NCBI GenBank assembly: GCA_964421955.1
Contig: CAYQYU010000010.1
Span: forward strand, 1 to 36,498
Length of the DNA stretch: 36,498 nucleotides
Reading direction: 5' to 3'
From: an uncultured archaeon
GTDB lineage: Archaea > Nanohalarchaeota > Nanosalinia > Nanosalinales > Nanosalinaceae
Shown here piece by piece: positions 11,196-34,341 of the stretch. The notes beneath the pieces are model-generated. The model made no database searches. It was not told where the DNA came from and saw nothing but the letters and a program-made list of their open reading frames with translations. Every line of letters starts with the position of its first letter. Positions within the stretch are counted from its first letter, which is position 1. Position numbers and translations under genes: made by a program.

Positions 11196-11271
11196 AGAAA
11201 AATACTAGAGGCTAAAATCCTTTTAAAACGCAAGGGAGACAATAAAAAGTTCTTGACTCAAGTTGCTCCTT
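11196..11271. promoter_or_regulatory. Divergent promoter region secF / aglB
   Basis: 76-nt spacer with TTTTAAAA at 11221-11228 (about 26 nt from the secF ATG) and AATAAAAA at 11241-11248 (about 25-30 nt from the aglB ATG). Confidence 0.5.
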
Positions 11272-17509: not shown

Positions 17510-18820
17510 ATGGATAGCCCCAGCGTGGTTTTCTTGGTTCTCGACAGCCTCAGGAGAGACCGGCTTTCCACATACAATTCCAAAATCGATTTTACAGAGA
17601 GTATAGAAAAGTTCTCGGAGGAGGCCGCGGTCTTTGAAAACGCAGTCGCGAATGCACCTTGGACCCTGCCTTCACACGCGTCGATGTTCACCGGGATGTA
17701 CCCCTGGGAGCATAACGCGACACAGAGAAATCTTTCCCTCGAGGTCGAAAAACCGCTGCTCGCGGAAAGATTCTCGGAGGAAGGTTACTCAACCGCTTGC
17801 ATCTCGACCAACGCCTGGCTGTCCCGCAAGTTTGGACTCGGGAAAGGTTTCGATCTCGTGGACAACCTTAGCTCCGGCGGGCTCTCCGAGAAGCTGTCGA
17901 AGATAAGGAGGACTATGGATGAATGGCTTTCAAGCCCGGGGAACGAACAGCTGAAACGACTGATCGTGAGACTCGGCAACAGTCTCTTCCATTACTGGAA
18001 CAGCGGGAGCCAGACAGAGGAAGTGCTGGAGAGAGGAAAGGAATTTATCGCTGAAAACGACCAATTCTTCCTCTTCCTGAACCTGATGGACGCTCACGAG
18101 CCTTACTTCCCGCCGGAAGAATACCGGGAGAAACACGGAGCGCCCTCGCCGAGAGAAATATGCCAGGACCCTACCGACTACCACTTCGGACGGAAGCAGC
18201 CCGACTTTGATGCGATAAACAGGATATACGACGCCTCGGTTGACCACGTGGACGATATGCTGGGCGAGTTCTTCGACTACCTGAGAGATACCGGTAGATG
18301 GGAGGGCACAGTCTTGATCGTGACCTCAGATCACGGCCAGATGTTGGGGGAAAACGAGGAGTATGGCCACCAGTTTTCGGTGGCGGAGTCTCTGGTGTCA
18401 GTTCCGCTAATGGTGAAAGGTGCGGAGGATGTCGATAGCCAGGTCGAGCTACGGGAGTTATATGATATTGTGCTCAACGCTGCAGGTATAGAACCCGGAT
18501 ACGAGGCTGGCACCAGGTTTGCGAAGGGGAGCTACGAGTTCCCTGACATGATGCGACCCCGGATCCCTCCCAAAAAATGGCGGGATTTCTACCGCCGCCA
18601 CAAGTTTGCCAGGTCACTGGACGGCCGGGTCACTCGTTCGGAGAATGAGGAAGAAGAGGTCGAAACCAAGTTCGAGGGCTTCAGCAAGGAACTTTCAGAC
18701 GAAGAAAAACGGCGGCTGGAGGAGAAGCTCGAACTGATCGGTAAATCGGAAAAAGGCGAGGACCTTGAAGAACATACTGACGAGATAAGGAGGAAACTGA
18801 AGGATCTCGGGTACGGCTAG
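17510..18820 (+). CDS. Sulfatase-fold (AlkP superfamily) protein, non-FGly type, LGY tail
   Basis: VLDSLR, PWTLPSHASMFTG, DAHEPY, TSDHG, GH; ends EIRRKLKDLGYG. Confidence 0.9.
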   Translation: MDSPSVVFLVLDSLRRDRLSTYNSKIDFTESIEKFSEEAAVFENAVANAPWTLPSHASMFTGMYPWEHNATQRNLSLEVEKPLLAERFSEEGYSTACISTNAWLSRKFGLGKGFDLVDNLSSGGLSEKLSKIRRTMDEWLSSPGNEQLKRLIVRLGNSLFHYWNSGSQTEEVLERGKEFIAENDQFFLFLNLMDAHEPYFPPEEYREKHGAPSPREICQDPTDYHFGRKQPDFDAINRIYDASVDHVDDMLGEFFDYLRDTGRWEGTVLIVTSDHGQMLGENEEYGHQFSVAESLVSVPLMVKGAEDVDSQVELRELYDIVLNAAGIEPGYEAGTRFAKGSYEFPDMMRPRIPPKKWRDFYRRHKFARSLDGRVTRSENEEEEVETKFEGFSKELSDEEKRRLEEKLELIGKSEKGEDLEEHTDEIRRKLKDLGYG

Positions 18821-18875
18821 GCGAAAGAATTCTGGAAATGTTTTAATTCTCATGCTGACCCTTTCAACAATATAG

Positions 18876-19784
18876 ATGGACACCGGAAAACGTTTGAAGC
18901 AGCTGGCAAGCATCCTTATCACGGCAGGAGGTTTCTACATAGTTCTCAGGAACCTCGACCTGTCCAAAGCCTGGACTGCCCTGGTATCAGCTGATCCTCT
19001 TTATTTCGCCGCGGGAAGCATTGTGCTTGTCTTCATCTATTTCCTGATGGGTGAGAGATGGAGGGTGATACTCGGCGACAAAGAGGTCGAGGTAAGTCAG
19101 ATGAAGGCTTTTGAACAGCTTCTGGTATCAGATTTTGTCAACAGCTTTCTGCCCGCCAGAGCCGGGGACATCTACCGCGGCTACATGGCCTCCGGGGAAG
19201 AAAAGTCGACTCTCGATACCTCGGTGATGGTGCTGATGGAGCGGGTGATGGACGTGACCGCTATCACGCTGCTCCTCTCGCTGGCGCTGGTCAGCTTCTA
19301 TCCCGGCAAGAAATTCATCATGTATCCTGCCGCAGCCGGAGCACTCCTGCTGATAGGATTAGCAGGCCTCTATCTACTCTGGAAACTCGAAGAGCCTCCG
19401 ATCCCTCTCCTTGAAAAATACTATTCTACGCTGAGAGGGGTGATAGTCGAGAACTTCACCACCACGAGACTCGTGGAACTCTTCCTTCTAACTGTGGTTA
19501 TCTGGATGATGGGTGTCGCGAGAACCTTTACAGTTTTCGAGGCCCTGGGAATCCCCGCAGGAATCGGGCTGATAACTGTTGTAACGTTTCTCTGGGCCGT
19601 CATAGCTGTTCTCCCTCTCACTCCCGCTGGCCTCGGCGCCACGGATGCTGCCGTGTTCCTGCTCCTGGCGAGCACAGGCTTCGGATCTGCGGAGGCCGCG
19701 GCCTTCATCGCGCTCAACCGACTGATGCTCCAGGGAGTTCCAGTGATCCTGGGAGGATCGCTCTACATCAGAAGATCAGGCTAG
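18876..19784 (+). CDS. Lysylphosphatidylglycerol-synthase-TM / flippase-like (UPF0104) protein
   Basis: RW, FVNSFLPARAGDIYR, ERVMD, PLTPAGLG motifs; multi-TM. Confidence 0.88.
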   Translation: MDTGKRLKQLASILITAGGFYIVLRNLDLSKAWTALVSADPLYFAAGSIVLVFIYFLMGERWRVILGDKEVEVSQMKAFEQLLVSDFVNSFLPARAGDIYRGYMASGEEKSTLDTSVMVLMERVMDVTAITLLLSLALVSFYPGKKFIMYPAAAGALLLIGLAGLYLLWKLEEPPIPLLEKYYSTLRGVIVENFTTTRLVELFLLTVVIWMMGVARTFTVFEALGIPAGIGLITVVTFLWAVIAVLPLTPAGLGATDAAVFLLLASTGFGSAEAAAFIALNRLMLQGVPVILGGSLYIRRSG

Positions 19785-19785
19785 C

Positions 19786-20154
19786 TCATTCCTCTCTTTC
19801 TTCGGAATATGGATCCTCCACGCGCGTGATATCGTCGGGCCGATATGGGAAAGAAATCTCGAGTACCTCTGCGACTTCGCCGCCTATATTCTGTATCTGG
19901 TGTCTCTGGCCTGACCGGATAACCTTTGCGCCGCCGTTCTCCAGATCCTCGAGTTCATCATCTCTTCTCAAGACCACGTTGCCTTCCTGAAGGTAGATGA
20001 CGTCGGCCTGTTCGTCGTGGTAGGAGTAAGAAGTCATCCCCTCCGCGTCTATGACCAGTCTGCGGATTCCGAGCATTCCTGTGCGATCTCCAACATCGAC
20101 CTGGGTGATCAGAACCTGGTCCTCGTAGCCCCAGGGTTTCTCTATACGCCCCAT
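19786..20154 (-). CDS. Cupin protein, mannose-6-phosphate isomerase type II-like
   Basis: IEKPWG, SYSYH, GQRHQIQN, LEIS, DDITRVEDPY. Confidence 0.8.
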   Translation of the reverse strand: MGRIEKPWGYEDQVLITQVDVGDRTGMLGIRRLVIDAEGMTSYSYHDEQADVIYLQEGNVVLRRDDELEDLENGGAKVIRSGQRHQIQNIGGEVAEVLEISFPYRPDDITRVEDPYSEEREE

Positions 20155-20179
20155 GCACCTTCAAGGACGCTCAAACTTC

Positions 20180-21118
20180 TTATACGTGATTCTGGTAGTA
20201 CTCCACCGTCTTTTCAAGACCTTCTTCAAAGCTGTAATCCGGCTCGTAACCCAGAGATTTCCGGGCACGGGAAATATCCGCCTTTGTGGTCTGGACGTAC
20301 TTTTCACGGGGATTGTCTACATGTTCTGCCTCTATATTCTTCCCGAGAACCTCGTTTAGCTTCTCAACCACCTGGTTGAACGAAACGTCTTTCCCGGTTC
20401 CAACATTGAAGTATTTACCGTCGATCCCTTCTTTCCGTTCAGCCGCGAGAATGTTCGCGGTCACGACATCCTTCACAAATGTGAAGTCCCTTGTCTGTGA
20501 ACCGTCCCCCCAGATGACAGGTTGCTCGTCCTCCATCATCTTCCAGAGGAACTGGGTCACGATGTTGGCGTACTTGCCCTTCGATCTCTCATGCGGTCCG
20601 TAGACAGAAAAGTAACGCAGACCTGTGGTCTCCACACGATTATTGTAGGAGTAAACCTGTGCGTATCTTTCGCGAGACATCTTCGATGCGGTATAGAGGT
20701 TGGTAGGTACCTCTTCCATGTCTTCCCTGTGGGGCGGCTCGACGCTCCCGTACATCGAACTCGTCGAGGCATACACTATCTTCTCGACGCCGGCCTCTAT
20801 CGCCGCCTCGGCCGTGGTCACGAAGCCTTCAATATTGACACGGCATCCTCTCTGCGGGTTTTCCTTATGCATGGGGGAACTTGAGCGGGCGGCCTGATGG
20901 AAAACCGTATCGCAGCCTTCTACTGCGGCCTCAACTTTTTCGCGGTCGAGAACCGATCCCTTCACAAATTCTATCTCGCTTTCAACTTCCGATAGGTTTT
21001 CCCTTGATCCAAGGTAGAGGTCGTCCAGAACCACTACTTCAATATCGCGTTCTACAAGCTCCTCGACCAGATTAGAACCTATGAATCCCGCTCCTCCTGT
21101 CACTAGCGCCTTTTCCAT
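20180..21118 (-). CDS. NAD-dependent nucleotide-sugar epimerase/dehydratase
   Basis: TGGAGFIG, YASTSSMYG, YTASK, RYFSVYGP, GDGSQTRDF. An alternative GTG start at 21148 overlaps the pfkB-family stop. Confidence 0.93.
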   Translation of the reverse strand: MEKALVTGGAGFIGSNLVEELVERDIEVVVLDDLYLGSRENLSEVESEIEFVKGSVLDREKVEAAVEGCDTVFHQAARSSSPMHKENPQRGCRVNIEGFVTTAEAAIEAGVEKIVYASTSSMYGSVEPPHREDMEEVPTNLYTASKMSRERYAQVYSYNNRVETTGLRYFSVYGPHERSKGKYANIVTQFLWKMMEDEQPVIWGDGSQTRDFTFVKDVVTANILAAERKEGIDGKYFNVGTGKDVSFNQVVEKLNEVLGKNIEAEHVDNPREKYVQTTKADISRARKSLGYEPDYSFEEGLEKTVEYYQNHV

Positions 21119-21144
21119 GGTATAATTTCGACCTGAAACGTTTT

Positions 21145-21996
21145 TCACTCTAACTCAGTTCTGCCCGGGAGGGCCGACATCGCTCCCTTTGCCGTGGTCG
21201 ATATAGATGCGGCCTTCACAGCTTTCTGAAGAGCTTCTCTCTTACCGCGGTTCCGGAAAGCAAGGTATGTTCCTGTCAGGGCGTCTCCAGCCCCTGTAGT
21301 ATCGACTACCTTAACATCTTCTGCGTCTTCGCCGAACCGATCTTCCGGTGTCACCAGCTCAGCTCCACTGCTCCCTCTTGTGATAATTATCTCGCCCACC
21401 TTCTCTCTCAGTCTCTCCAGACCTCCGAAGAACTCAATTTCCTCTTCAGCCGCGGTGAGAATATCGACGTGGTTGATCAGCCGTTTTAGCCTTTCCTCGT
21501 ACTCCGCCGACATTAGATCCTCTCTCAGGTTGGGATCAAAGCTTACCGGGGCATCGATACTCTCTGCAAACTCCAGGACGTTTCCGGCAGTCTTCTCATC
21601 GGTCAACGGCAGAGAACCCAGGTGTACTATTCCTTCAGGTTCCAGGTCAAGCTGTTCAGTTGAGATATGCTCATCAGCCTCCCTGTAGAACATGAAGTGC
21701 GGTTTCGCGCCCTCATCAAGAGATGCAAAAGCCAGTGTCGTCCTTTGGTCCAACTTTTCTATTCTGTCTGTTCCCACTTCCTCTTCCCGGAGCTTTTCCA
21801 GCAGGAATTCTCCGAACTCGTCTTCCCCGACAGTCGCTACCATCTCCACATCCGCGCCGAGGCGTGCAGCGGCGACCGCAACGTTGGCAGGAGCACCACC
21901 CGGCCTCTTGGAGAACTCTGTGTTTTCCTCAAGGCTTTTCCTTTCCTCCCCTATAAAATCTACCAGGAGCTCCCCTACACAGACAAGATCACTCAT
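21145..21996 (-). CDS. PfkB-family carbohydrate kinase (fructokinase-like)
   Basis: GELLVD, GGAPANVA, FDPNLR, VDTTGAGD. Confidence 0.93.
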   Translation of the reverse strand: MSDLVCVGELLVDFIGEERKSLEENTEFSKRPGGAPANVAVAAARLGADVEMVATVGEDEFGEFLLEKLREEEVGTDRIEKLDQRTTLAFASLDEGAKPHFMFYREADEHISTEQLDLEPEGIVHLGSLPLTDEKTAGNVLEFAESIDAPVSFDPNLREDLMSAEYEERLKRLINHVDILTAAEEEIEFFGGLERLREKVGEIIITRGSSGAELVTPEDRFGEDAEDVKVVDTTGAGDALTGTYLAFRNRGKREALQKAVKAASISTTAKGAMSALPGRTELE

Positions 21997-22810
21997 ACCT
22001 GAGATCCTTGACCTCTTCTATCTTCTTCTGGAGTTCTCCAGAGTTCCTAGCCAGTTCTCCCGGGAACGCATAACCATCTGAAATATCAAGATCGTTCTCC
22101 TCAACGTATCTTCTTGTATCCTCTATGTCGTCGCCCACCAGGTAGTGCATCAGAGCCGATGTAAACTCGTGATCCTTCGAATCCACAGAGTAGACCGAGG
22201 CTTCCGTGACCTTTTCAGCGTCCTCAGGCGAGTCTCCTATAGCTATGCCGTATCCTCCCGTTGCCACGGCGTATCTCATGGCTTCCAGATCCGTGTCGCT
22301 GTCTCCAATATATGTCACATTCACCGGCCCTTCAACAGGGTCGATTCCCTGCCCGACAAGATGATTCTGCATCCTGACTGGTTTCTGGTACCTTCCGTTA
22401 AAGCTCGGGCCTTCTTCCGTGAGTTCACCGGCGATCTTGCCGTCAAAGTGGCCGTTGGTTACTGCATCAATAGCGGGTTTCCATCCTGCAGAATGGGCAA
22501 CAAGAACGTATTTGTCCGAGAAATCTTCTATTACCGATTCCATCCCTCTCCGGGGCCTGGGTTCGAGATTTCTGGCCGCCGCTTCGAGATCATCTACTTC
22601 ACCGTTTCCATCGAGGTAGAGAAGCAGTTCGTTTCCCTTCCCCTCAGGAGGCTCTCCTTCCCTGGGATCGTGGAAGGTAGCCATCAGATCTCCAAACTCG
22701 TCTCTGGAACAAACTCCGGCGTTTACAAGGGTTTCCTGCCCTGTATCTCGGGGATCTACAGTCCCGTCTATATCGAAAAACACTACTTGTCCAGACTCTT
22801 TCTCAGGCAT
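21989..22810 (-). CDS. HAD-superfamily hydrolase
   Basis: Motif I FFDIDGT, motif II HSAG, Lys in YQKP, motif IV IGDSDTD; 8-nt overlap with the kinase gene. Confidence 0.8.
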   Translation of the reverse strand: MPEKESGQVVFFDIDGTVDPRDTGQETLVNAGVCSRDEFGDLMATFHDPREGEPPEGKGNELLLYLDGNGEVDDLEAAARNLEPRPRRGMESVIEDFSDKYVLVAHSAGWKPAIDAVTNGHFDGKIAGELTEEGPSFNGRYQKPVRMQNHLVGQGIDPVEGPVNVTYIGDSDTDLEAMRYAVATGGYGIAIGDSPEDAEKVTEASVYSVDSKDHEFTSALMHYLVGDDIEDTRRYVEENDLDISDGYAFPGELARNSGELQKKIEEVKDLRYE

Positions 22811-22888
22811 AGTATTACGATGTATTACTTATCGTTTTTAAATGGTGCGGTCCTGATCTTTATGAACCGAAATCACAAACTCGGTTCT

Positions 22889-23323
22889 ATGCGGAACAAC
22901 CTGCTCCGGTCGATCATCGACAGCGAATCCCGTGCCTATGGATTCACGATCGCTTTCTGGGGTTCCGGGATGATACTCGTCAGTACCTTTGGAGCGCCAG
23001 GAATAACAGGAGTCCTTTACTATGCGCTCGGTGCAATAACAGGCTTCGGTCTAACAACGCTCCTGGCGTACGAGCATTTCTTCGGATCACCGGACTATGA
23101 GCAGCCCGAGTACCTGATTTTCAGCACCATACACTACCTTTCGTCACTCGCACCGATAATCGCTACCTACTTTTACACGCTTGCATATCCATCCCTGATC
23201 GGTTCGGGGATGGTCTTCTTCCTCTCGGGAGTCTCCGTTTCATTCACCTACAACATCCTGATGCTCGTGGAGGAAAAAATCTCGGAAGAGGTAAAGCAGC
23301 TCGAAGAGAGAATCCTGAAATAG
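22889..23323 (+). CDS. Hypothetical membrane protein (about 4 TM)
   Basis: ESRAYGFTIAFWGSG followed by hydrophobic helices. Start at 22889 or 22862; the longer ORF-track version is antisense to the HAD gene. Confidence 0.75.
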   Translation: MRNNLLRSIIDSESRAYGFTIAFWGSGMILVSTFGAPGITGVLYYALGAITGFGLTTLLAYEHFFGSPDYEQPEYLIFSTIHYLSSLAPIIATYFYTLAYPSLIGSGMVFFLSGVSVSFTYNILMLVEEKISEEVKQLEERILK

Positions 23324-24070
23324 CTACTCGTCAACATCCATCCAGTTGCCGCCGTATATGTAGCCGGAAAGGTTCCCTGACGACGCAAGCTTCTCGAATA
23401 CAGTTTCGAGACTGTTGTTCTCCAGGTGGTCAAATATCTCCGGTTCGACAACATAAGTTCCAGCGTTGATAAGACGGGAAGGTTCCTCGCCAGATTCAGG
23501 TTTCTCTTCAAAGCCGAGAATCTTCCTGCCCTTCAGGCGGGCGACACCGTAGCGTGAAGGGTCTTCGACAGTCGTGAGCGCCATCGTCGCAACGGATTCA
23601 CCGTCCCTGTGGACCTCCCCCATTTCATGGAAGTCAACATCGCTTATGACATGGCCGTTGAGCACCAGAAAGCTACCATCGATCAGATCTTCCACATTCC
23701 TCAGGGCCGCGGCAGTTCCACGAGGTTCTTCTTCCTGGACGTACTCCAGCGACATTCCGCTGTATTCAGAACCGAAGTGGCTCTCTATCTCATCGTTCTG
23801 GCCTATCAGGAGTATCGTGCGGGAGATCGACTGTTCCGACAGGTGCTCCAGTATATGTTCTAGCACCGGCCGGCCACTGTAATCCTCGAGAGACTTCGCG
23901 TCCGGGTCGCCACAGAGAACCACCGCAGTGTCAAGAGATCTCTTCTGGAAATAGCTCTCGATCAGCTCTTCAACCATCTGTGAGCGGTTTACATCGACCT
24001 TTGAGGCCTCGGAATCGATCTTTTCGACCAGGCTTTCCTCCAGGGTAAGGGAGATTCTTTTCTTGGCCAT
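23324..24070 (-). CDS. RHH (CopG-like) domain fused to degenerate sugar-phosphate nucleotidyltransferase domain
   Basis: N-terminal KKRISLTLEESLVEKID...NRSQMVEELI; C-terminal EEEPRGTAAAL, DPSRYGV, FEEKP, INAGTY, WMDV; GGxGTR loop absent. Confidence 0.85.
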   Translation of the reverse strand: MAKKRISLTLEESLVEKIDSEASKVDVNRSQMVEELIESYFQKRSLDTAVVLCGDPDAKSLEDYSGRPVLEHILEHLSEQSISRTILLIGQNDEIESHFGSEYSGMSLEYVQEEEPRGTAAALRNVEDLIDGSFLVLNGHVISDVDFHEMGEVHRDGESVATMALTTVEDPSRYGVARLKGRKILGFEEKPESGEEPSRLINAGTYVVEPEIFDHLENNSLETVFEKLASSGNLSGYIYGGNWMDVDE

Positions 24071-24211
24071 GACAGGAAATTTGTGATATACACTTTAATT
24101 TGTCATTCCGGACAGCGCCGATATCATACCGATAACCATGGACATAACAGAATAGTCCACATCCTCTGTGTTCTAGAAAAGTTTTAATCAGTTATCAAGA
24201 CAGGATAAGTC

Positions 24212-25012
24212 ATGGATGTCCCTCCTGTAATCTACCGGATGTACCGGGAGCGGTTTTACCCGTTAATTTCGGACACAGTTCTTGAAGATGCCGTGCACGA
24301 GACTCTGGTAAAGCTCTCACAGGCAGGCATAGAAAAGGTGGACGAGAGCCGGGCAGAGGGAATATACGAAAAAGGCGGCTGGGACAACCTGATAATACTG
24401 GATGCCTGCCGGTACGATTTTTACCGAGAGAAAGTAGGAGATGTAGACTACCGGATAACTCTGGGAAGCAACTCGAGAGATTTCATACGCGAGACTTTTT
24501 CCGGGCGAGACTGTTCGGATACTGTTTACGTCTCGGGAAACGCCCACACTGATGAAGAAATATTCATGGAGATAACAGGCAGGAGTCCGGGACAGGTTTT
24601 CCACGAGATTTTCCAGGTCCACGAGACCGACTGGATAGGTGAAGAAGGAGCGAATCCTGGAGCCATAGTCAGGGATGGCAGAACCGCTCGCAAACTCTGG
24701 CCTGACAAAAAACTGGTCATACACCTCATGCAGCCACATCTACCGTTCATAGCGCGTGAAGAGGACAAAGAAATAGACTACGAGAAGGCCAAGAAAGGAC
24801 AAATCGATGCAGAGAGAGTCAGGAACGCGTACGAGAGAAATCTTGATTACGTCCTTGAAGGACCGCTCCAGGAGCTCCTGGAGGCCCTGGACGGAGAAAC
24901 AGTTATCACCGCGGATCACGGGGAATTCCTTGGCGAGAACAACAGGTACGGTCATCCCGGAGGATGCAGCGAAGAGATACTCAGGAAAGTCCCCTGGCAC
25001 AGAGTTGAATAA
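24212..25012 (+). CDS. AlkP/sulfatase-superfamily protein (short haloarchaeal type)
   Basis: WDNLIILDACRYD, HLMQPHLPF, TADHGEFLGE, GH, KVPW. Confidence 0.85.
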   Translation: MDVPPVIYRMYRERFYPLISDTVLEDAVHETLVKLSQAGIEKVDESRAEGIYEKGGWDNLIILDACRYDFYREKVGDVDYRITLGSNSRDFIRETFSGRDCSDTVYVSGNAHTDEEIFMEITGRSPGQVFHEIFQVHETDWIGEEGANPGAIVRDGRTARKLWPDKKLVIHLMQPHLPFIAREEDKEIDYEKAKKGQIDAERVRNAYERNLDYVLEGPLQELLEALDGETVITADHGEFLGENNRYGHPGGCSEEILRKVPWHRVE

Positions 25013-25052
25013 AGAAAAAATAATGGAAGGAACCAGAGGTTTTGAGCCTCTG
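25011..25052 (-). terminator. Hairpin plus U-tract after the CysD-like gene
   Basis: Minus strand CAGAGG-CTCAAAA-CCTCTG starts 3 nt after the stop, followed shortly by TTATTTTTTCTTT. Confidence 0.5.
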
Positions 25053-25054
25053 CT

Positions 25055-25972
25055 TCACATGTAACCCAGTTCCCTCAGCTTGTTCATGATCTCCTTGTCG
25101 TCCTTGTTCTGGGCCCTCCCGGCGCGCTCCTTGGTGTTCTCTACGTCCTGGAGCCAGGCAGGTTCATCCTCGTGCTTGTCGGTAGAGACCTCCGAGCCCA
25201 GGGATCGGAAGCCCGCCCAGTACTTCGGACTGATCGGGACATCGTTCTTTGAAAGCCCTTCCGGTAGATCTTCAGGGCTCTCCGGGTACTCCTCGATATC
25301 CACGCCGGTGATGTCCGGCACCATGTGGAACCAGGATACGTCCCACACGTCTCGCTCTGTTAACTGGAGAATCGGGTGGACTCGCATGTGATCAGGGTCT
25401 TCCCTCGGAGAGTAGAAGTCTTCGTCGCCGCGGGACTCGTGCTCGTCCCATCGCACACCGTTAATGACTGCTTCAACATCGTGGTTTTCGAGCAGCTCGT
25501 TCATGGGAACCGTCTTCAATAGATGGTTGCCTGCCTCAGTGTCCATCAGCCACGGTACTTCCTCGTAGTCGCCGACACGTTCAGCTTCCTCCTGGTTCCG
25601 CTCATTAAGTTCGGCAACCGGAACTTTATCACCAGGATTCTCGGCCTTCTCTATCAGGTCCTCGTTTTTCGCGACCATGACTTCGAAGCCCCAGTCATCC
25701 GCGAGTCTTCGGACATAATCCTCAAGCTCCTCAAAGTGCTGGCCGTGGTCCACGAACATGAACCTTGGCTTCTCCCAGCCTTCTTCCTCGCATACTCGCT
25801 TGACGAGCCAGGCGGTAATAGTCGAATCCTTGCCGCCGGTGAATCCGATTACAGAGTTCTCCGGTCCGTACTCCTCCAGCGCACGTTTCACAACCTCTTC
25901 TCCGGCTCTTATTTTGGCTTTTGTGGGTGCTTTCTCGATCTCTTCTCGTGTTACAGGTGGTTCTGGTGTCAT
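25055..25972 (-). CDS. PAPS-reductase-family adenine-nucleotide-binding protein, CysD-like (sulfate adenylyltransferase subunit 2 type)
   Basis: PP-loop FTGGKDS, GVRWDEHESR, RVHPIL, GFRSLG, ERAGRAQ. It lacks the CC/CxxC Fe-S ligands and C-terminal ECGLH of true reductases; ends EIMNKLRELGYM. Confidence 0.82.
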   Translation of the reverse strand: MTPEPPVTREEIEKAPTKAKIRAGEEVVKRALEEYGPENSVIGFTGGKDSTITAWLVKRVCEEEGWEKPRFMFVDHGQHFEELEDYVRRLADDWGFEVMVAKNEDLIEKAENPGDKVPVAELNERNQEEAERVGDYEEVPWLMDTEAGNHLLKTVPMNELLENHDVEAVINGVRWDEHESRGDEDFYSPREDPDHMRVHPILQLTERDVWDVSWFHMVPDITGVDIEEYPESPEDLPEGLSKNDVPISPKYWAGFRSLGSEVSTDKHEDEPAWLQDVENTKERAGRAQNKDDKEIMNKLRELGYM

Positions 25973-25988
25973 GTTATCACGAAGTATT

Positions 25989-26762
25989 CTAGTCAACGCC
26001 GTAGTAGTCGAGAATTGCCTTCCCGACATCCTCCGGCTGGTTGATCTCGTAGTCGACGTTGTTTGTGATTAAAACTGCGTCCTCGTGGTGGTCGCCCTGT
26101 AGCTTGCCGTGCGGTGTCTCTTCAGGAAGTGTTTGTACGCGGCCCTCGCCGAACTCTGCGAAGCCGTGGTCACTCAGCACGATTAGCGGTTCATCGCCTG
26201 AGAAGTCATAGTAATTGAGCAGTTCGCCTAGGACTTCGTCCATCTTCCTGTACCACTCGAGTATCAGTTCCCTGTCGTTCCAGTAGAAGTGTGAGACGCG
26301 GTCGAGCTGCATGAAGACGACGGCGAAGAACTCGGGATCGTCTTCCAGCACTTCCCTGCATTTATCCAGCAGCTTCTTCCGGTCGGCTTCCAGTTCATCC
26401 AGGTCGCTAGAGACTCCGAAGCCCTCTGGCTCGTAATCTGTATTCCAGTTGATCGGAGGTATCACAGAGGGAACCTGGAGCACGCGTGCATCCACCTCTC
26501 CATCAAGCTTCTCCCAGACGAAAGTCCCCTCGATATCTTCTCGCTTCTGCAGCTCGTCATCGACCACGAAGTCCTTGTGGCCGTGTTCTTTTTGCGAAAG
26601 ACCTGTGAAGATTGATGTCCAGAGCGGCGCGCTCTTGGGCGTCTCCTCTACAGTTACGGTCTTGTAGTCGCATTCCTCCATCAGACGGTCGAAGTTCGGG
26701 AGCTCGTCTCTGTTGGGTTTGATGATGTCCCATGTTGCAGCGTCGATTCCAATAACTTTCAT
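25989..26762 (-). CDS. AlkP superfamily / type I phosphodiesterase-like protein (short)
   Basis: IGIDAATW, SAPLWTSIFTG, LDRVSH, LSDHGF, GDH. Confidence 0.85.
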   Translation of the reverse strand: MKVIGIDAATWDIIKPNRDELPNFDRLMEECDYKTVTVEETPKSAPLWTSIFTGLSQKEHGHKDFVVDDELQKREDIEGTFVWEKLDGEVDARVLQVPSVIPPINWNTDYEPEGFGVSSDLDELEADRKKLLDKCREVLEDDPEFFAVVFMQLDRVSHFYWNDRELILEWYRKMDEVLGELLNYYDFSGDEPLIVLSDHGFAEFGEGRVQTLPEETPHGKLQGDHHEDAVLITNNVDYEINQPEDVGKAILDYYGVD

Positions 26763-26817
26763 AGTATCTTTTCGTCCAGCGTAAAGATTTGAGAAAATCT
26801 ATGATTTTCGACCATTG

Positions 26818-27021
26818 CTATACCTCCATCCCCCAGTTAATATTGCTCCATGCGCGTTCCCAAGCGTAGTATAGCGCGGTCTTGGCTATTGCCGCCGTAC
26901 CACCGATCTTTACAGAAGAACCGATTTTCCCGGTGTAAAGCAGCGCAACTCCGAATACGGTCACGGTCGCGAACATCCTGTAGCTCAGAGCTTTTACTAA
27001 AGATCTCCTGTGTTTATGCAT
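26818..27021 (-). CDS. DUF2061-like small membrane protein
   Basis: RSLVKALSYR...KTALYYAWERAWSNINWG family pattern. Confidence 0.8.
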   Translation of the reverse strand: MHKHRRSLVKALSYRMFATVTVFGVALLYTGKIGSSVKIGGTAAIAKTALYYAWERAWSNINWGMEV

Positions 27022-27032
27022 CAGTTGAAAAC

Positions 27033-27233
27033 CTATCTATCCATGTATCCTAGTTTCTCCAGCTTTTTACCAATCTCCTTTATGTCGTCTTCCGACAGAT
27101 CTCTTTCGTCCTCAGGCATCCTGTTCTCCGCCAGCTCCTCCAGCTTGTCCTGGACAAAGCGAGACAGGTTGATATGGTTCTCGTCCACGAACTCGGCGAG
27201 CTCGTCGGGCAGGGAGATCGTCTTCCTCTTCAT
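27033..27233 (-). CDS. Small RHH-like protein with acidic linker and LGY tail
   Basis: MKRKTISLPDELAEFVDENHINLSRFVQDKLEEL beta-helix-helix pattern; ends EIGKKLEKLGYMDR. Confidence 0.75.
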   Translation of the reverse strand: MKRKTISLPDELAEFVDENHINLSRFVQDKLEELAENRMPEDERDLSEDDIKEIGKKLEKLGYMDR

Positions 27234-27273
27234 ATAATACATAAGTTAATTAAGATATTAAATAAGTTTTTCT

Positions 27274-28716
27274 TCAGAACGATATGTCCTCCACCTCCAT
27301 CGATCTGATCTCCTCCTCAAGATCGGGGACCAGTTCCGAAGGCAGTGAGCCATCCAGGTCATCGGGAACAGGCTCTCCCAGAAGGGTGTAGATTAGCGGA
27401 GCCACATCGCAGATATAGAGGTCCTCCTCTGCATCTTCGTCGACGTCCGGGCCTCTGGCGAAGAACACTCCTGTCTCGTCGTGGGTGAAGGAGTTGGTCT
27501 TATCAAAGATTGACGAGGAGTTCTCGGAAGAGATGATGACGCCCTTTCTTGCCTTCACGACGACATCCGGCCGGTCCTCTGCATCAGGATATATTTCTTC
27601 ACCTCTCCAGACTTCCTCTATCAGCTTTTCCCCGTCCTGCTCCAGGGAGCCGAATTTTTCAACCAGACTTTCAACTATCTCCTCCCGTTCTTCTTCAGGG
27701 ACTTTTCCGTGCGGGAGATCTTCTGTATGAACCTTCAGGCCCGCCTCCCTGCCCTCGGTGAAGTACGGAAGAACTCTGGAACTCTTCGATACGCCGCTGA
27801 GTGCTCCTGATTCAAAGCCGGTCAGGTCTGCTCCTGTCTTTGACTCGAAGAAGTCGTGAGCGTACTTTAGATACTTCTTGAGGCCTGTGTCCAGGAACGG
27901 CTTTGCAAGCCGGTAGACCGGCGTCTCGCTCTTCCCATCCTCAAACTCCAGGTAGCCCTCTTGCTCCAGAAACGTGGAAATGTTGAACTTTAGCTTTGCC
28001 TTTTGAAAGCCGTGGTCCGAGACCACAATCAGTTTGGCGTCGTTCTCTTCCGCCTTCTCGATGAACTCTCCTATAGTTTCATCAACGTACTCGTAGGCCC
28101 TGAGAACCGTTTTCTCTCTTTCCGAGAAGTGTCCTGCCCTATCGACGAGCTGGAATACCGATACGAACACGTCCGGCCTCTTTTCATAGATGTGCTGCGA
28201 AACTATCTTCTCCTTCCGGAAATTCTCTTTCTCCGTCTTGATCTTCGAACTGGCGGTCGTCCGGGAGTGAGAACTCTGCTTGGAGATGTCGAGCTTTCCC
28301 TCCAGTTCTTCTTCAAGCTCATCAGGATAGAACTCGAAATTGTTCGCGAGCGATCCCGAACGCATCCATCCGTTAACGGGGTAGACGGGCGAGGTTCCCG
28401 GGATAAAGTGGAGACCCACCTTTCCGTCTATGCGGTCCCAGAACATCTTGCCCCGGAAGTAAGACGAGTCGGGGAAGCGGGCGCCCCAGTTCTCAAAGTC
28501 CGCCATCGCCAGGTGGTACGCCTCGAACTTGTCTGGCGTGTAGCCGGAGAACATACAGGGCCATGCAGGGATAGTTATTGCAGGAACAGTGCTCGGAAGC
28601 TCGGTGTAGAACGATTCTCCCACCAGTTTTTCCCAGTTCTCTAGCTCATACTTCTCCATCGCCTTTCTCAGGTACTCGGGATCGGCACCGTCTATACCAA
28701 GCACAATCAGATCCAT
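27274..28716 (-). CDS. AlkP superfamily / type I phosphodiesterase-like protein
   Basis: LGIDGA, STVPAITIPAW, VDRAGH, VSDHGF, DVAP, DLDG; ends EVEDISF. Confidence 0.9.
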   Translation of the reverse strand: MDLIVLGIDGADPEYLRKAMEKYELENWEKLVGESFYTELPSTVPAITIPAWPCMFSGYTPDKFEAYHLAMADFENWGARFPDSSYFRGKMFWDRIDGKVGLHFIPGTSPVYPVNGWMRSGSLANNFEFYPDELEEELEGKLDISKQSSHSRTTASSKIKTEKENFRKEKIVSQHIYEKRPDVFVSVFQLVDRAGHFSEREKTVLRAYEYVDETIGEFIEKAEENDAKLIVVSDHGFQKAKLKFNISTFLEQEGYLEFEDGKSETPVYRLAKPFLDTGLKKYLKYAHDFFESKTGADLTGFESGALSGVSKSSRVLPYFTEGREAGLKVHTEDLPHGKVPEEEREEIVESLVEKFGSLEQDGEKLIEEVWRGEEIYPDAEDRPDVVVKARKGVIISSENSSSIFDKTNSFTHDETGVFFARGPDVDEDAEEDLYICDVAPLIYTLLGEPVPDDLDGSLPSELVPDLEEEIRSMEVEDISF

Positions 28717-28791
28717 TTTTCTTACTCTCCTGCGTTACACGATACTTCCACTGTTAATGATAATAAAATAACCGGATTCAAAACTATTGAC

Positions 28792-30351: not shown

Positions 30352-30352
30352 T

Positions 30353-30568
30353 CTAATCGAGGTAGCCGAGTCCGCGGAGACGGTCCTTGACCTTCTCCTC
30401 CTCCTCTTCACTGTAAGAAGACTCCTGCTGCTCCTTCTCGCGCCTGATCTTCTCGACCACCTGTTCCAGAAGGTATGCGATATATTCCTCTGTCGTATCA
30501 AAGTCTTTTTCCTCGGCCCTGGCCTCCAGAACAGAATGAATGTCGTCATCGACTTCTACGTTTGCCAT
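30353..30568 (-). CDS. Small RHH/CopG-like protein with acidic linker and LGY tail
   Basis: VEVDDDIHSVLEARAEEKDFDTTEEYIAYLLEQ followed by SEEEEEKVKDRLRGLGYLD. Confidence 0.82.
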   Translation of the reverse strand: MANVEVDDDIHSVLEARAEEKDFDTTEEYIAYLLEQVVEKIRREKEQQESSYSEEEEEKVKDRLRGLGYLD

Positions 30569-30630
30569 TATGAATCACGTCTAACTTTCAACGGGAGAGC
30601 TTATTATTTCTTTCACCCGCAACTTCTGGT

Positions 30631-31623
30631 ATGCCGGAATTCGAAAACATCTTCATCTACGTTTCAGATGCGCTGAGATACGATCACGTACCGGAATCAA
30701 TCGCAGAGTCAAGAAATATCGTACCTACGCTTGTTCCTGCAGGATACACCCCCATCTCGTTTTCATCTCTAGTCACGGGGCTTGATCCGAGGAAACACGC
30801 GGTGAGATCATTCTACGACACCCTGGAGATGGAGACGGTATTTGAACGTTTCGATGACCACTCCTACTACGACCATCCGGACGACGCGATGAGCCGGAAC
30901 GTGATGAAACATTTCGACAGGAAAGAGCTGGAGGACCAAGAGCCTCCTTTCATACATGTCGAGAGGGCTCTCGACACCCACGCACCGTATGGCCAGATGG
31001 AACACGGCAACGAAATCCACGAGGAGGAACAGGAAGGAAGTTTAAAGGAACAGTACAGGCGCGGCGTTGAGTCAACAGAGGAGCACTTCTGGAGCCACGT
31101 CGAAGAGCTGAAGGATCGTGGACTCTACGAGGACACTCTCATCATCTTCACCTCTGACCACGGAGAATGGCTTGGAGAGAAAGTGCTGGGCAAGAAACGC
31201 CACGACCATAACTGTCCTGTAAGAGAAGAACTGTGCGTCGTCCCGACCGTGTTCCTGAACTATGAAAACAGCTGGGATCGGGCAAGAACGATCGACATAC
31301 TGCCGACCGCGCTCTCGATACTCGGAAAGGAAACAGTGGGAGAGGGCTTCGATCTGCGGGATAGGGAGCCTGATTCTGGCCACTCGATGCTACAGGTAAA
31401 CACCCACCCGCTGATAGTTACTGGTAGCGAGTGGCGCTGGGACAGTCAATGGAAGATAAGCAAGGGCAAGCTCAGGGTGGACGCCGCCACCAAGTTCATT
31501 GACTGGATAAACCCGATACGCCAGCCTTTGAGAAACACAAAGATCGGGGACCTGTTCGGCTCAGACAACTCGGTACAGCAGAAGTTCTATGCTGATGACG
31601 AGCTTGAAGGGATCGACTTCTAG
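30631..31623 (+). CDS. Sulfatase-like AlkP superfamily protein
   Basis: YVSDALRYD, YTPISFSSLVTG, DTHAPY, TSDHGE, DILPT; ends ELEGIDF. Confidence 0.87.
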   Translation: MPEFENIFIYVSDALRYDHVPESIAESRNIVPTLVPAGYTPISFSSLVTGLDPRKHAVRSFYDTLEMETVFERFDDHSYYDHPDDAMSRNVMKHFDRKELEDQEPPFIHVERALDTHAPYGQMEHGNEIHEEEQEGSLKEQYRRGVESTEEHFWSHVEELKDRGLYEDTLIIFTSDHGEWLGEKVLGKKRHDHNCPVREELCVVPTVFLNYENSWDRARTIDILPTALSILGKETVGEGFDLRDREPDSGHSMLQVNTHPLIVTGSEWRWDSQWKISKGKLRVDAATKFIDWINPIRQPLRNTKIGDLFGSDNSVQQKFYADDELEGIDF

Positions 31624-31630
31624 AAGTCGA
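31613..31630. repeat. Perfect 18-bp palindrome centred on overlapping convergent stops
   Basis: TCGACTTCTAGAAGTCGA equals its own reverse complement. Confidence 0.9.
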
Positions 31631-33071
31631 GGTCGTGCACGTCCTCGCTGGTTGTTTCCCGCTGTCTCTTCCCAGGTTCAGAACTCGCGGAGAAAATATC
31701 CATGACCTTGCCGTCCATCTCTTCAGGAATATCCTCGCCAAAGTAGTGCAGAACCGTCGGGGCGAGATCCACAAGCTCCGCGTCCTCTTCATCAAAGTCG
31801 AAAACGTTGCCATAAAGTCCTATGTAGCCCTGCTTCCGGTGCATGTAGCTCGAGAGTTTACCAGTCACGTTCGGCTTTATGTCGGAATCGTTCTTCACTT
31901 TTTCCTCGAACACGACTACCAGGTCAGGGAATGTTTCCACGTCAACATCAAAGGCCTCTTCTTTCAAAAGCACATTTTCAACCAGTTCGTGCCGCTCCAG
32001 TTTGCCCTTGATCTCCTTCTTCTTGGCCTGACGATCTTCTACAGTACCTTGAGGAAATCTATCATCGTTTATCCAGATGCCGGCGTATCCGCATACTCCT
32101 GTCATGTAGGAGAATGCCTCTGTACCTTCCCAATCTATCGAGTCGAAGTCCAGGTCTGTCGAGACAAATTTTTCTCCAGCGATGTTTCCGTAGAGATCAT
32201 TGATTCTCACAAGGTAGTCTCTCAGGCCCGCGCTTTCGAAGACTTCCGCAGTCCCGAGAACCAGCGATTTCAATTTCTCTTTTACCCTCGAACTCTCTTC
32301 CTCTTTCATTTCCAGGAAGCCGTTCTCTCTCAGCCAGGTATTGATGGAGAAACGTCTATCGGCCTTGACTGCGCCGTGGTCTGAAAGCGCGATTATGTTC
32401 ACATCACGCTCCATCAATTCTCCTAGGAGTTCATCACATTCCCTGTAAGCATCCAGCATGATCTCTTCATCGGAGCAGTGGTGCATCATGTTATCGGGCA
32501 GCCGGAAAACCATGAAGTAGACCTCCGCATCCTTCCTGTCCATCAACCATTCCAGGGTGTCCCTGCGCTTCTCAAAGGAGTCGTAGAAAGACTCTCTCCT
32601 CTCCTTCTCGCTCCCAAAGTAGTCTATGCCCTCTAGCCTGAACTCGCCCAGGTCTTCCTCCATCTCGGTGTAGAGCTCTTCCGGGTAGGTCGATTGGGTC
32701 GACACGTCGAATATGCCGCCGACCATCCATCCGTCGATCTCGTGCACGGTCGCGCCGGGAACATCCGCTATCGCGGACTTTCCATCCATGTAGTTCCAGA
32801 ACTCCTGGAACCAGTACCGCTCCTGTCCCGCAGGAGCGAATCCATAGTTCTCGAAGTCTATAACCTGGAAATCAAATCTCTCCAGCTTCTCGGGCTTCTT
32901 GCCCGTGAAAGACGATATCCACGCCGGCACAGTTATCGGAGGCAGGGTTGACTCCAGCAGCCCTGAATTACCCGATTCGTCGAGCTGCCTTAAGTTCTCC
33001 AGCTCATCGATATTGTTCTCGATCAGGTAGGGATCGATGCCGTCGAGGCCCAGTATGACGAGAGGCTTCAT
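31620..33071 (-). CDS. AlkP superfamily / type I phosphodiesterase-like protein
   Basis: LGLDGID, STLPPITVPAW, PDNMMH, LSDHG, DLAPT, EMDG; ends DVHDLDF; ATG 1 nt after the upstream stop. Confidence 0.9.
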   Translation of the reverse strand: MKPLVILGLDGIDPYLIENNIDELENLRQLDESGNSGLLESTLPPITVPAWISSFTGKKPEKLERFDFQVIDFENYGFAPAGQERYWFQEFWNYMDGKSAIADVPGATVHEIDGWMVGGIFDVSTQSTYPEELYTEMEEDLGEFRLEGIDYFGSEKERRESFYDSFEKRRDTLEWLMDRKDAEVYFMVFRLPDNMMHHCSDEEIMLDAYRECDELLGELMERDVNIIALSDHGAVKADRRFSINTWLRENGFLEMKEEESSRVKEKLKSLVLGTAEVFESAGLRDYLVRINDLYGNIAGEKFVSTDLDFDSIDWEGTEAFSYMTGVCGYAGIWINDDRFPQGTVEDRQAKKKEIKGKLERHELVENVLLKEEAFDVDVETFPDLVVVFEEKVKNDSDIKPNVTGKLSSYMHRKQGYIGLYGNVFDFDEEDAELVDLAPTVLHYFGEDIPEEMDGKVMDIFSASSEPGKRQRETTSEDVHDLDF

Positions 33072-33072
33072 C

Positions 33073-34341
33073 TCAGTCCCTGTAACCAAGATTCCTTAGA
33101 CGCGATTTTATCTCCTCTTCCTCATCTGCTTCAACCTTTCCGCGGAAATCCTGGAGAACCTGGGAGAATTTTTCTATCCGATCTGGTTCCTCTTCCGAGA
33201 TATCATCGGTTTCTCCAGGATCCTCCTCGATATCGTAGAACCTGTCCTCATCCTTCCTGAAGTCACGGATGAGCTTGTATTCCCGCGATCTCAGGGCCGC
33301 CTTCTGCCTTTCATCGGTGTTCACCTCGGCGTAGGCGTACTCTGGAGAGGATTCAAACAGGTCGACTCCGTCGAAACTCTCCTGATCGAAGTCGAGATCG
33401 CAGGCGCTCAACGCCGTCGGAAGAATGTCTATACTTCTCGCGAGCCTGTCCCACTTCTCGCCGGACTCGAGGAGCGAATCGTCCCTAGACCACAGAACCA
33501 AGGGGACGTTGAGAACGTTATCATACAGGAAGTTGCCGTGCTCGTACCGTTTTTCCTCCTGTCTCTCCTGATGCTCGTTGAAGCTCTCGCCGTGATCGCC
33601 GAAGACTACTATCAGCGTGTCCTCCAGAGCATCTTCATCCTCCAGAATCCTGATCATTTCTTCAATATACTCGTCAGCCTCCTTGAGAGATTCTCGATAG
33701 CCCCGCTCAACTCTTTCAGGATATTCTTCTATCAGGTCTCTTATCCGCTCCATCCGATAGTTCCAGAAATACTTGATTGGGTATCTCAGGATCTCCTTCC
33801 AGAAAGGTCTATTATAGCGGCCCATGTAACCCCTCGGAAACAGTTTCTGCTGTATTCTCAGGGCTACGTTTGCAAAGAAATCCCGCATCCCACTGACTGG
33901 AAGCCGAGTCCTGTAAGGAAGATGGGTGTTCCAGTAGTGGATGAAAAGGAATAGATCATCCTCTCTAGTCTCCTGAATTGCCCCCTCCACATTCGAAATC
34001 TCGTCGGAGCCCGCGTAGCTCCATCCTCTAAATCCGCGGTCTTTCAACATCCCGGAGCCCAAGAGCGTCCTCACCTCGAAACCGTTCTGGTCAAAGAAGC
34101 TGAACACAGTTTCCATTTCTTCATCCTTCAGTGCTCCTCCCAGGCTTCTGATGCCCGAGTTTTTCGGGAGCTTCCCTGTCAGGATCGATCCGTGGTTGCC
34201 TGTGTGAGGCATCTGGACGAACGTGTCTGGAAAGTGCTCTCCCTCCTCGCATATCCTGTCGATAGCCGGAGTGTCTAACGGGCTTTCAGGGCCAAAGTAA
34301 TCACTCCTAGTGCTTTCAAGGGAGAGGAATATGACATTCAT
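33073..34341 (-). CDS. Sulfatase-fold protein, non-FGly type, LGY tail
   Basis: LSLESTR, PHTGNHGSILTG, HYWNTHLPY, GDHGE, HG, VPL, DILPT, YDIEEDPGE; ends EIKSRLRNLGYRD. Confidence 0.9.
   Translation of the reverse strand: MNVIFLSLESTRSDYFGPESPLDTPAIDRICEEGEHFPDTFVQMPHTGNHGSILTGKLPKNSGIRSLGGALKDEEMETVFSFFDQNGFEVRTLLGSGMLKDRGFRGWSYAGSDEISNVEGAIQETREDDLFLFIHYWNTHLPYRTRLPVSGMRDFFANVALRIQQKLFPRGYMGRYNRPFWKEILRYPIKYFWNYRMERIRDLIEEYPERVERGYRESLKEADEYIEEMIRILEDEDALEDTLIVVFGDHGESFNEHQERQEEKRYEHGNFLYDNVLNVPLVLWSRDDSLLESGEKWDRLARSIDILPTALSACDLDFDQESFDGVDLFESSPEYAYAEVNTDERQKAALRSREYKLIRDFRKDEDRFYDIEEDPGETDDISEEEPDRIEKFSQVLQDFRGKVEADEEEEIKSRLRNLGYRD

Follow-up and report, generated by a model that had tools for sequence, protein, structure and literature searches.

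A shared C-terminal LGY tail on sulfatase-fold, CysD-like and small proteins of a nanohaloarchaeal glycosylation island as a candidate docking helix

The window, that is, the whole stretch of 36,498 nucleotides analysed here, comes from an uncultured archaeon of the Nanosalinaceae (contig CAYQYU010000010.1, assembly GCA_964421955.1), has a G+C content of about 52% and encodes an acidic proteome. Annotation with Pfam delimited an AglB-anchored N-glycosylation and sulfation island reaching from 11.2 kb to the window end. The glycan genes of the island comprise the oligosaccharyltransferase AglB/STT3 as the anchor (11263-13725, + strand, PF02516), GT4, PMT_2, two GT2, a MOP-type flippase and sugar-nucleotide enzymes. 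The island further holds seven paralogues of the alkaline-phosphatase superfamily (starts at 17510, 24212, 25989, 27274, 30631, 31620 and 33073), a CysD-like PP-loop protein, a DUF2061 membrane protein and two small proteins. Five of these proteins end in the same short segment, here called the T1 tail and defined as [EK][IV]xx[KR]LxxLGY followed by 1-3 residues at the C-terminus.

The first carrier is a sulfatase-fold protein of the alkaline-phosphatase superfamily with 436 amino acids (aa) (17510-18820, + strand; PF00884, E 8.4e-35); its C-terminus reads ...DEIRRKLKDLGYG, and the tail EIRRKLKDLGYG with the stop codon lies at 18782-18820. The other four carriers are encoded on the - strand. 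Carrier 2, the CysD-like PP-loop protein (25055-26029; PAPS_reduct, PF01507), ends with ...KEIMNKLRELGYM, the tail EIMNKLRELGYM and stop being at 25055-25093; it scored 75.9 bits against the CysD subfamily model of NCBIfam, under the cut-off of 195. Carrier 3, the small beta-alpha-alpha, ribbon-helix-helix (RHH)-like protein A with 69 aa and 287 homologues (27033-27242), ends with ...KEIGKKLEKLGYMDR (tail EIGKKLEKLGYMDR and stop, 27033-27077). The small beta-alpha-alpha (RHH-like) protein B, carrier 4 with 71 aa and no Pfam family (30353-30568), ends with ...EKVKDRLRGLGYLD (tail KVKDRLRGLGYLD and stop, 30353-30394). Carrier 5 is a second sulfatase-fold protein of 422 aa (33073-34341; PF00884, E 4e-22) whose gene overlaps by 17 nt with that of AlkP489, a paralogue described below; it ends with ...EEIKSRLRNLGYRD (tail EIKSRLRNLGYRD and stop, 33073-33114).

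All five C-termini were thus found exactly where an earlier note on this DNA, made from the letters alone, had placed them, and its count of three folds among the five carriers was confirmed (two PF00884 sulfatases, one PF01507 PAPS_reduct/CysD-like protein and two small beta-alpha-alpha proteins). The acidic linker that the note had placed before the tail was generally present, but not in the CysD-like protein, in which a conserved ERAGRAQNKDD segment stands before the tail and the tail can be aligned to the native C-terminus of canonical CysD. The statement that housekeeping proteins lack the tail also held, as none of the 12 proteins tested in bases 1-11 kb carried it; the ordinary genes there include those of an OGG glycosylase, dihydroorotate dehydrogenase, AI-2E and TctA transporters, a short-chain dehydrogenase/reductase (SDR) and SecD/SecF. 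The DNA of the tails was only 44-72% identical (33-58% at third codon positions) with a longest common run of 8 nt, which excluded a DNA repeat and indicated that the likeness is kept at the peptide level, as the note had argued.

The restriction of T1 to protein ends was far above chance. Of the 359 stop-to-stop open reading frames (ORFs) that measure 50 aa or more in the window, only five end in LGY with four or fewer following residues. When the core [LIVM]xx[KRQENSD][LIVM]xx[LM]GY was searched in 1834 ORFs (198,032 residues) of the window and 21 related loci, it occurred 59 times, 56 times within four residues of the C-terminus and three times internally; calculated from the internal rate, about 0.03 C-terminal matches were expected in the window against the five observed. 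A local HMM gave 53 C-terminal matches of at least 15 bits and a single internal one, on a CysD-like protein that is extended by a hydrophobic stretch, and zero internal matches at 8-15 bits. The 21 nanohaloarchaeal loci had been picked by a search with small protein A, so its presence in 21/21 is by construction. The carriers in this sample were sulfatase-fold, CysD-like, APS kinase and AlkP266-like proteins and the two small-protein families, and nothing else among the 1834 ORFs. A HAD-like protein of the window (21989-22810), ending with ...KKIEEVKDLRYE, was considered as a bearer of a degenerate tail and rejected, since its orthologues do not keep this end and the HMM score was low.

From the arrangement of its residues, we infer that T1 would form a self-contained, capped amphipathic helix of about 14 residues: most families have a [ST]xxE start, the hydrophobic residues are spaced by 4 and 3, a Gly provides the stop and the Tyr would fold back. 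The first half of the tail is acidic, often with [ST]xxE as the N-cap, the second half is basic (K[VI]KxRL[RK]x), and the segment finishes with L-G-Y, which we take from general knowledge of helix capping to be a Schellman-type cap with the Tyr packing back on the helix. The helix segment has a mean hydrophobicity of -0.35 to -0.71 and a hydrophobic moment of 0.54-0.78, and the tail region carries a net charge of 0 to -3. The consensus across lineages was [YF][ST]xE[ED]EEK[VI]KxRL[RK]xLGY[ILM][DE], to which the tail of small protein B is the nearest of the five in the window. The Tyr is followed by 1-4 residues, and each family has its own number and its own variant of the tail. In most carriers, T1 sits on a poorly conserved acidic linker, 10-50 residues long in most carriers of the window.

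Purifying selection on the tail was stronger than that on the catalytic domain. In the sulfatase family, the tail reached a mean column identity of 0.76, compared with 0.57 in the catalytic domain and 0.26 in the linker, which measures 48-78 residues with 32% D/E. The tail was located at the very end in 118 of the 120 best homologues of carrier 1, down to 36% identity, and L430, L433, G434 and Y435 were invariant in the family alignment, as were the metal ligands. The conservation covered the basic positions as well as the hydrophobic ones. For small protein A, 119 of the 120 homologues listed ended in LGY with 0-6 further residues and one in MGY.

No NCBIfam model covered T1, and the Pfam matches, PG_binding_2, CheR_N and UFL1_C, were all sub-threshold; the small-protein family likewise had no Pfam or NCBIfam model. 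A peptidoglycan-binding domain (PF08823/PGBD) was rejected, the match reaching 18.6 bits against a cut-off of 21.1 and covering only profile positions 4-33 of 74, which correspond to the first helix; comparable matches under the threshold came up again in the Pfam scan of 100 database proteins with the tail. The HbYX motif of proteasome activators is defined as hydrophobic-Tyr-X in the final three residues; this was rejected too, as Gly always precedes the Tyr in T1 and 1-4 residues stand behind it. In profile searches of the PDB, the tail weakly resembled the final helix of L7/L12 (E 0.013) and small protein A weakly resembled designed TPR helices (E about 0.1); both matches were ascribed to the generic character of capped amphipathic helices.

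The motif also occurs as the native end of sulfate-activation enzymes. The profile of the CysD-like family matched Pseudomonas syringae CysD (1ZUN_A) with E 2e-11 and was aligned to residue 324 of 325; the end of carrier 2, ...ERAGRAQNKDDKEIMNKLRELGYM, aligned to the canonical CysD end, and the CysD-type C-terminal ERxGR...GY segment was present. Escherichia coli CysD ends with ...SMELKKRQGYF, so that, together with the end of 1ZUN, a GY-plus-one end is native to CysD. The archaeal APS kinase structures 7YQ0 and 8A8H end with ...VLKKLMELGYL and ...TAQKLGYL, displaying the same [VI]/L/L-G-Y-hydrophobic pattern. In the tail-bearing APS kinases, this native end is followed by a linker and a second copy, and HMMER scored both. 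T1 therefore looks like a detached terminal segment of both sulfate-activation enzymes, and we infer that it may have arisen as a detached copy of this segment in APS kinase/CysD. Pattern and extreme position are alike; in the APS kinases and CysD the segment directly continues the catalytic domain, whereas most carriers of the window have it on unrelated folds, set apart by an acidic linker. The two Leu of T1 are missing from canonical CysD, and the motif is missing from E. coli CysC. The "tag" of the earlier note does not describe CysD and APS kinase, in which the motif is the native end. The contacts of the CysD C-terminus were not mentioned in the accessible parts of PMC5770160, PMC4373884 and PMC10322725.

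The start of carrier 2 is probably at 25972 (MTPEPPVTREEIE...), giving a protein of 305 aa, as its orthologues begin with MPEAPVTREEIE; this start would also remove a 41-nt overlap with AlkP257, a short tail-less PF01663 protein (25989-26762, - strand) encoded between small protein A and the CysD-like gene. A CysN GTPase partner was not found: Pfam detected no GTPase family among the proteins of the window cluster, where the neighbour of carrier 2 is AlkP257, and none was found in the 21 loci by blast labels or among 17 unlabelled neighbours sampled with Pfam. Across nanohaloarchaeal genera, the CysD-like protein was 71-91% and AlkP257 70-88% identical; sulfatase-fold homologues in the same loci were 23-31% identical to those of the window. 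At locus L008 (2414-4570), a canonical tail-free ATP sulfurylase (PF01747 and PUA_2) followed by an APS kinase with T1 was encoded downstream of small protein A and DUF2061, in the slot occupied elsewhere by AlkP257 and the CysD-like protein with T1. This exchange indicated that the tail follows the pathway role rather than the fold, and suggests that AlkP257 and the CysD-like protein may be an alternative sulfate-activation module.

Beyond the window, the nanohaloarchaeal loci added the APS kinase of L008, further sulfatase-fold proteins and the AlkP266-like family as carriers. A profile of 18 tails, with 8000 candidates scored, gave 118 matching proteins: 42 CysD-like proteins, 35 APS kinases (about 200-207 aa), 16 PF01663/PF00884 proteins (many of them 509-570 aa), six AlkP266-like proteins, 18 small proteins and one odd protein. 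Those with a named source come from, among others, bacteria of the TA06 and Eisenbacteria groups, Methanosarcinales and Aenigmarchaeota. Of the 118, 105 had the motif at the C-terminus, and 12 of the other 13 were CysD-like proteins with about 17-20 extra hydrophobic residues (P0125, P0126, P0134, P0135, P0139-P0141, P0150, P0152, P0163, P0164 and P0166). The extended CysD-like homologues include that of Nanohalobium constans, and one is encoded at L005 (2058-3011); the extension follows ...LGYM, begins for example with AVPLFA... and may be a membrane anchor.

When 1.84 billion representatives were searched exhaustively with a profile (E <= 1e-3, no position imposed), at least 150 matched, and the motif was at the extreme C-terminus in 149 of the 150 matches listed. 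Fifty of these were under 55 aa and probably fragments; the Pfam scan of the other 100 found mostly beta-alpha-alpha proteins of 55-90 residues without a family, along with APS kinases and one sulfatase. Protein P0391 is a natural fusion of APS kinase, a beta-alpha-alpha (RHH) domain and the tail, P0358 has three RHH-type domains with two tails, and P0359 has one domain with two tandem tails. The tail was also found on small membrane proteins (P0181 and P0493) and on an Lrp/AsnC-type (P0443) and a DnaB_N-type protein, the latter two being possibly chimeric. At least 83 of the 50%-identity cluster representatives listed belong to the 60-85-residue size class. The carrier families overall were PF00884, PF01663, PF01507, PF01583, the AlkP266-like family, the small beta-alpha-alpha proteins and the small membrane proteins.

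The scan across prokaryotes, which the earlier note had suggested, thus placed the motif at the C-terminus of sulfation-type and small proteins in archaea and bacteria. Portability across folds was borne out by at least five architectures. The proposed tie to enzymes of sulfate activation and transfer turned out stronger than claimed, since in other archaea and in bacteria it takes in APS kinases and COG3379-type proteins as well. In all six haloarchaeal plasmids with a homologue of small protein B, the small tailed gene was situated within a glycan cluster along with at least one annotated sulfatase-like gene; in three of the six, T1 was also present nearby on a sulfatase, an AlkP266-like protein or an AlkP protein of the COG3379 type. 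In two haloarchaeal plasmids (L023, 12313-14901, - strand; L027, 10471-13080, + strand), the small tailed gene is adjoined by that of a large hypothetical protein (about 865 aa) whose C-terminal region is similar.

Small protein A is the first gene of a unit continuing with DUF2061, AlkP257 and the CysD-like gene, and its tail was most similar to that of the CysD-like protein of its own unit (67% identity). Its named homologues were all from Nanohaloarchaea, as were the 21 genome loci found with it. Small proteins A and B were homologous over their whole length (hhalign 97%, E 8.5e-11); the strand of A is an invariant RKTISLP and that of B is acidic (NVEVDDD). The earlier note had called them regulators. 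These RHH-like proteins do carry the tail, but the role of regulator is uncertain: neither reached a Pfam RHH threshold, the PDB profile search returned no RHH structure, and the hhalign probability against the RHH_1 domain of the RHH-nucleotidyltransferase of the cluster was 6-13%. Database sources and ESM Atlas clusters name the homologues CopG, one Atlas cluster having PF01402 on 28% of its members. The nucleotidyltransferase itself (23324-24070, - strand) has a bona fide RHH_1 domain (E 1.9e-5) N-terminal to a sugar-1-phosphate nucleotidyltransferase, a fusion kept in 10 loci.

The sulfatase-like proteins VNG1056C/VNG1057C (Agl30/Agl31), encoded in the aglB cluster of Halobacterium salinarum, were reported in 2025 as N-glycan sulfotransferases by genetic and mass-spectrometric evidence (PMC11980604, accessible part). 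Translation of the reverse cloning primers given there showed that Agl30 ends with ...HLEDLGYL and Agl31 with ...LEELGYT; to this extent, proven sulfotransferases carry T1, and the remark of the earlier note that such tails occur on haloarchaeal sulfatase-like proteins is borne out by these two and by the haloarchaeal plasmids. Agl30/Agl31 resemble the window carriers in being sulfatase-like members of the alkaline-phosphatase superfamily in an aglB-anchored cluster with LGY ends; both were assayed with tags behind the tail. In its accessible part, the report did not mention the tail, nor did it name the sulfate donor, the words donor, PAPS and phosphoadenosine having no occurrences.

The sulfatase-fold proteins of the window have Thr at the nucleophile position instead of Cys/Ser, and carrier 1 also has His in place of Arg. 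The signature of formylglycine-dependent sulfatases is C/S-x-P-x-R, in which Cys/Ser becomes formylglycine. An assignment of carrier 1 to these enzymes was rejected on its nucleophile site W-T-L-P-S-H...F-T-G (residues 51-62), where T52 is nearly invariant and H56 invariant. A Thr nucleophile fits transfer rather than hydrolysis, and carrier 1 is probably a glycan sulfotransferase.

The remaining paralogues of the superfamily have other ends. AlkP266 (24212-25012, + strand) is tail-less here and stops with ...KVPWHRVE, while its relatives at L013 and L019 and on a Haladaptatus plasmid continue with a linker and the tail; orthologues thus gain and lose it. A second tail, T2, was recognised as [ED]x[LI][DS]F-COOH (also, for example, EDLDF) on COG3379-type and short sulfatase-fold paralogues without the LGY tail. 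In the window, it is found on AlkP480 (27274-28716, - strand; PF01663, ...EVEDISF), which lies directly upstream of small protein A, on AlkP489 (31620-33089, - strand; PF01663, ...VHDLDF) and on the short sulfatase-fold protein Sulf330 (30631-31623, + strand; ...LEGIDF). Other T2 carriers are encoded at L001 (5297-6766 and 7001-8404), L002 (6686-8164), L007 (636-2057 and 2335-3330, the latter on the - strand), L008 (959-2383) and L012 (4001-4990, - strand). A T2 gene followed by a small LGY-tailed gene on the same strand was seen at L001, L002, L007, L008 and L015 as well as in the window.

Two further features of the window stand apart from these proteins. A partial tRNA gene was detected at the window edge (1-79, - strand; Rfam RF00005, 30 bits). 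In a gap between annotated-looking genes, the 3' part of the ORF 22145-23323 (about 22850-23323, + strand) resembles a small multi-span membrane protein; the 5' part of this ORF overlaps the HAD-like gene and is probably non-coding.

The analysis established the strict C-terminal position of T1 and its link to sulfation genes in Nanohaloarchaea, haloarchaea and bacteria. The reading to which we give the most weight, at about even chances, is that T1 is a docking helix assembling the sulfation pathway, which would bind in trans. T1 would serve protein-protein docking in the sulfation branch of glycan biosynthesis as a portable helix, and would hold together non-covalently the enzyme releasing activated sulfate (the CysD-like protein or APS kinase), the AlkP-fold sulfotransferases and the small RHH-like proteins, the last of which would be dimeric, bivalent adaptors and/or regulators. 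The tails could either pair mutually or bind a tail-less hub, for which AlkP257, the AlkP480/489-type proteins, the body of the CysD-like protein and the flippase are candidates. DUF2061 was rejected as a universal receptor of the tail, as it is missing from several loci.

Docking tails at the C-terminus on flexible linkers are known from the bacterial SSB tail, the docking domains of modular synthases and the binding helices of type II antitoxins. T1 resembles these as a short conserved C-terminal element behind a low-complexity linker, with one motif on many client proteins; unlike the acidic-aromatic carboxylate peptide of SSB, it would be a capped helix, and T2 is closer to the SSB type. 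Producers of APS/PAPS are often complexed, as in the CysD-CysN/CysC complex (PMC4373884, accessible part), and fused sulfate-activation enzymes are present in the PDB (2GKS and 1X6V). In other organisms, fused genes (PAPS synthase, CysNC and Sat-APS kinase) bring about the coupling that is proposed here for T1. In the covalent fusions PAPS synthase 1X6V, Sat-APS kinase 2GKS/3CR8 and CysN/CysC 4BZQ, consecutive activation steps are physically coupled as proposed here; those are single polypeptides, while the coupling by T1 would be non-covalent and would extend to transferases and small non-enzymatic proteins.

Several observations weigh against docking. The T1 variants and the residue number after the Tyr are kept within each family, which could mean family-specific, even intramolecular, contacts. 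The same pattern forms the last chain segment in solved APS kinases and can therefore serve as an ordinary element of structure. With just three or four residues, the hydrophobic face is small for a stable interface, and a conserved tail-less receptor was not identified. In three of the six haloarchaeal plasmid loci, the small protein was the lone T1 carrier within 10-12 kb. Moreover, Agl30/Agl31 with StrepII and His tags fused straight behind the tail still sulfated a glycan in Haloferax volcanii (PMC11980604, accessible part), indicating that a free tail end is non-essential for catalysis in that overexpression setting.

The main competitor, which we consider rather unlikely, is that T1 is a self-contained oligomerisation or stabilising helix. 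Each carrier would then form dimers or tetramers via its own tails, or the tail would pack in cis, and the sharing would reflect descent from the terminal helix of APS kinase/CysD with cassette co-transfer and no hetero-complex. The native ends of 7YQ0, 8A8H and CysD agree with this, as do the tailed APS kinases with native end, linker and second copy, the conserved family-specific variants and the small proteins that carry T1 alone in 3/6 haloarchaeal loci. The Mnt repressor, in which a tetramerisation helix stands C-terminal to the RHH domain, is a comparable case: both it and the small proteins have a small beta-alpha-alpha domain, a linker and a short C-terminal helix. The helix of Mnt, however, is not common to enzymes as T1 is, and the window proteins are only RHH-like. 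Five unrelated folds would each need a matching cis surface, of which a 45-residue beta-alpha-alpha domain offers little, and the long, variable acidic linkers fit a tethered element acting in trans. Stability alone would also not account for why T1 is confined to one pathway and why, in the same slot, the tail passes from the CysD-like protein to APS kinase, and the gain and loss of the tail among AlkP266 orthologues speaks against it as well.

The other explanations come after this one. Regulatory mimicry, in which the small proteins are RHH transcription factors with a build like that of type II antitoxins, and their tails compete with the enzyme tails for one and the same site, so that free sites report assembly to transcription, appears improbable. 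The naming of the small proteins as CopG/Arc/MetJ-type regulators in the sources, the invariant RKTISLP strand of small protein A, the likeness of its tail to the CysD-like tail of its own unit (67% identity) and the tailed Lrp/AsnC-type protein P0443 favour such a scheme; yet the RHH assignment is not established, small protein B, with its acidic NVEVDDD strand, does not look like a DNA reader, both small genes are embedded in operons of enzyme genes, in many cases overlapping or directly adjoining an AlkP gene, and are not placed at promoters, and P0443 may be a chimeric prediction. C-terminal membrane-targeting sequences are known from MinD and FtsA, and an amphipathic helix of this kind could bring soluble enzymes to lipid-linked glycans, which are presumably the substrates at the cytoplasmic face. 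The 12 CysD-like homologues with about 17-20 hydrophobic residues after LGYM and the small tailed membrane proteins P0181 and P0493 point in this direction. With a hydrophobicity of -0.35 to -0.71, a net charge of 0 to -3 and a strongly acidic linker, however, T1 lacks the net positive charge and the hydrophobic face wide enough for bilayer insertion of the MinD/FtsA type and is too polar for a membrane anchor; carriers with their own membrane spans would not need such a helix, and Agl31, with its LGYT end, was found in the soluble fraction (PMC11980604, accessible part). Membrane targeting is hence very improbable, and we judge equally slim the chance that T1 is a recognition tag for proteolysis or chaperones serving the co-ordinated turnover of the pathway proteins. 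As a turnover tag would be, T1 is exposed at the C-terminus behind a flexible linker and is common to functionally linked proteins, but the number of residues after the Tyr varies from 1 to 4, the Gly before the Tyr does not suit carboxylate-anchored motifs like HbYX, known degrons are not this conserved on both helix faces across bacteria and archaea, and no protease or chaperone gene was linked to the tail in the 21 nanohaloarchaeal or six plasmid loci.

The docking reading may also be extended, tentatively and at a clearly lower probability than docking itself, to a cross-domain assembly code. T1 stickers on acidic spacers would gather the activating enzymes and the AlkP-fold sulfotransferases into a non-covalent metabolon, in which the small proteins would be bivalent adaptors and not DNA binders, and T2 on the COG3379-type paralogues would be a complementary code; T1, detached from the terminal helix of APS kinase/CysD, would dock where that helix docks. 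In a still bolder variant, the invariant Tyr on its flexible arm might carry sulfate covalently between the enzymes.

No description of the tail was found in the literature on archaeal sulfatases, COG3379, nanohaloarchaeal glycosylation or LGY motifs. The motif, its pathway and its spread over both prokaryotic domains appear to be undescribed, while shared C-terminal docking tails as such are already known. The first enzymes of archaeal N-glycan sulfation, Agl30 and Agl31, were identified only in 2025, and a common handle provides a sequence route to all components of such sulfation pathways. If the docking role is true, the energetically unfavourable activation step would be physically coupled to its consumers, and a large family of 60-85-residue proteins without a Pfam model would gain a function.

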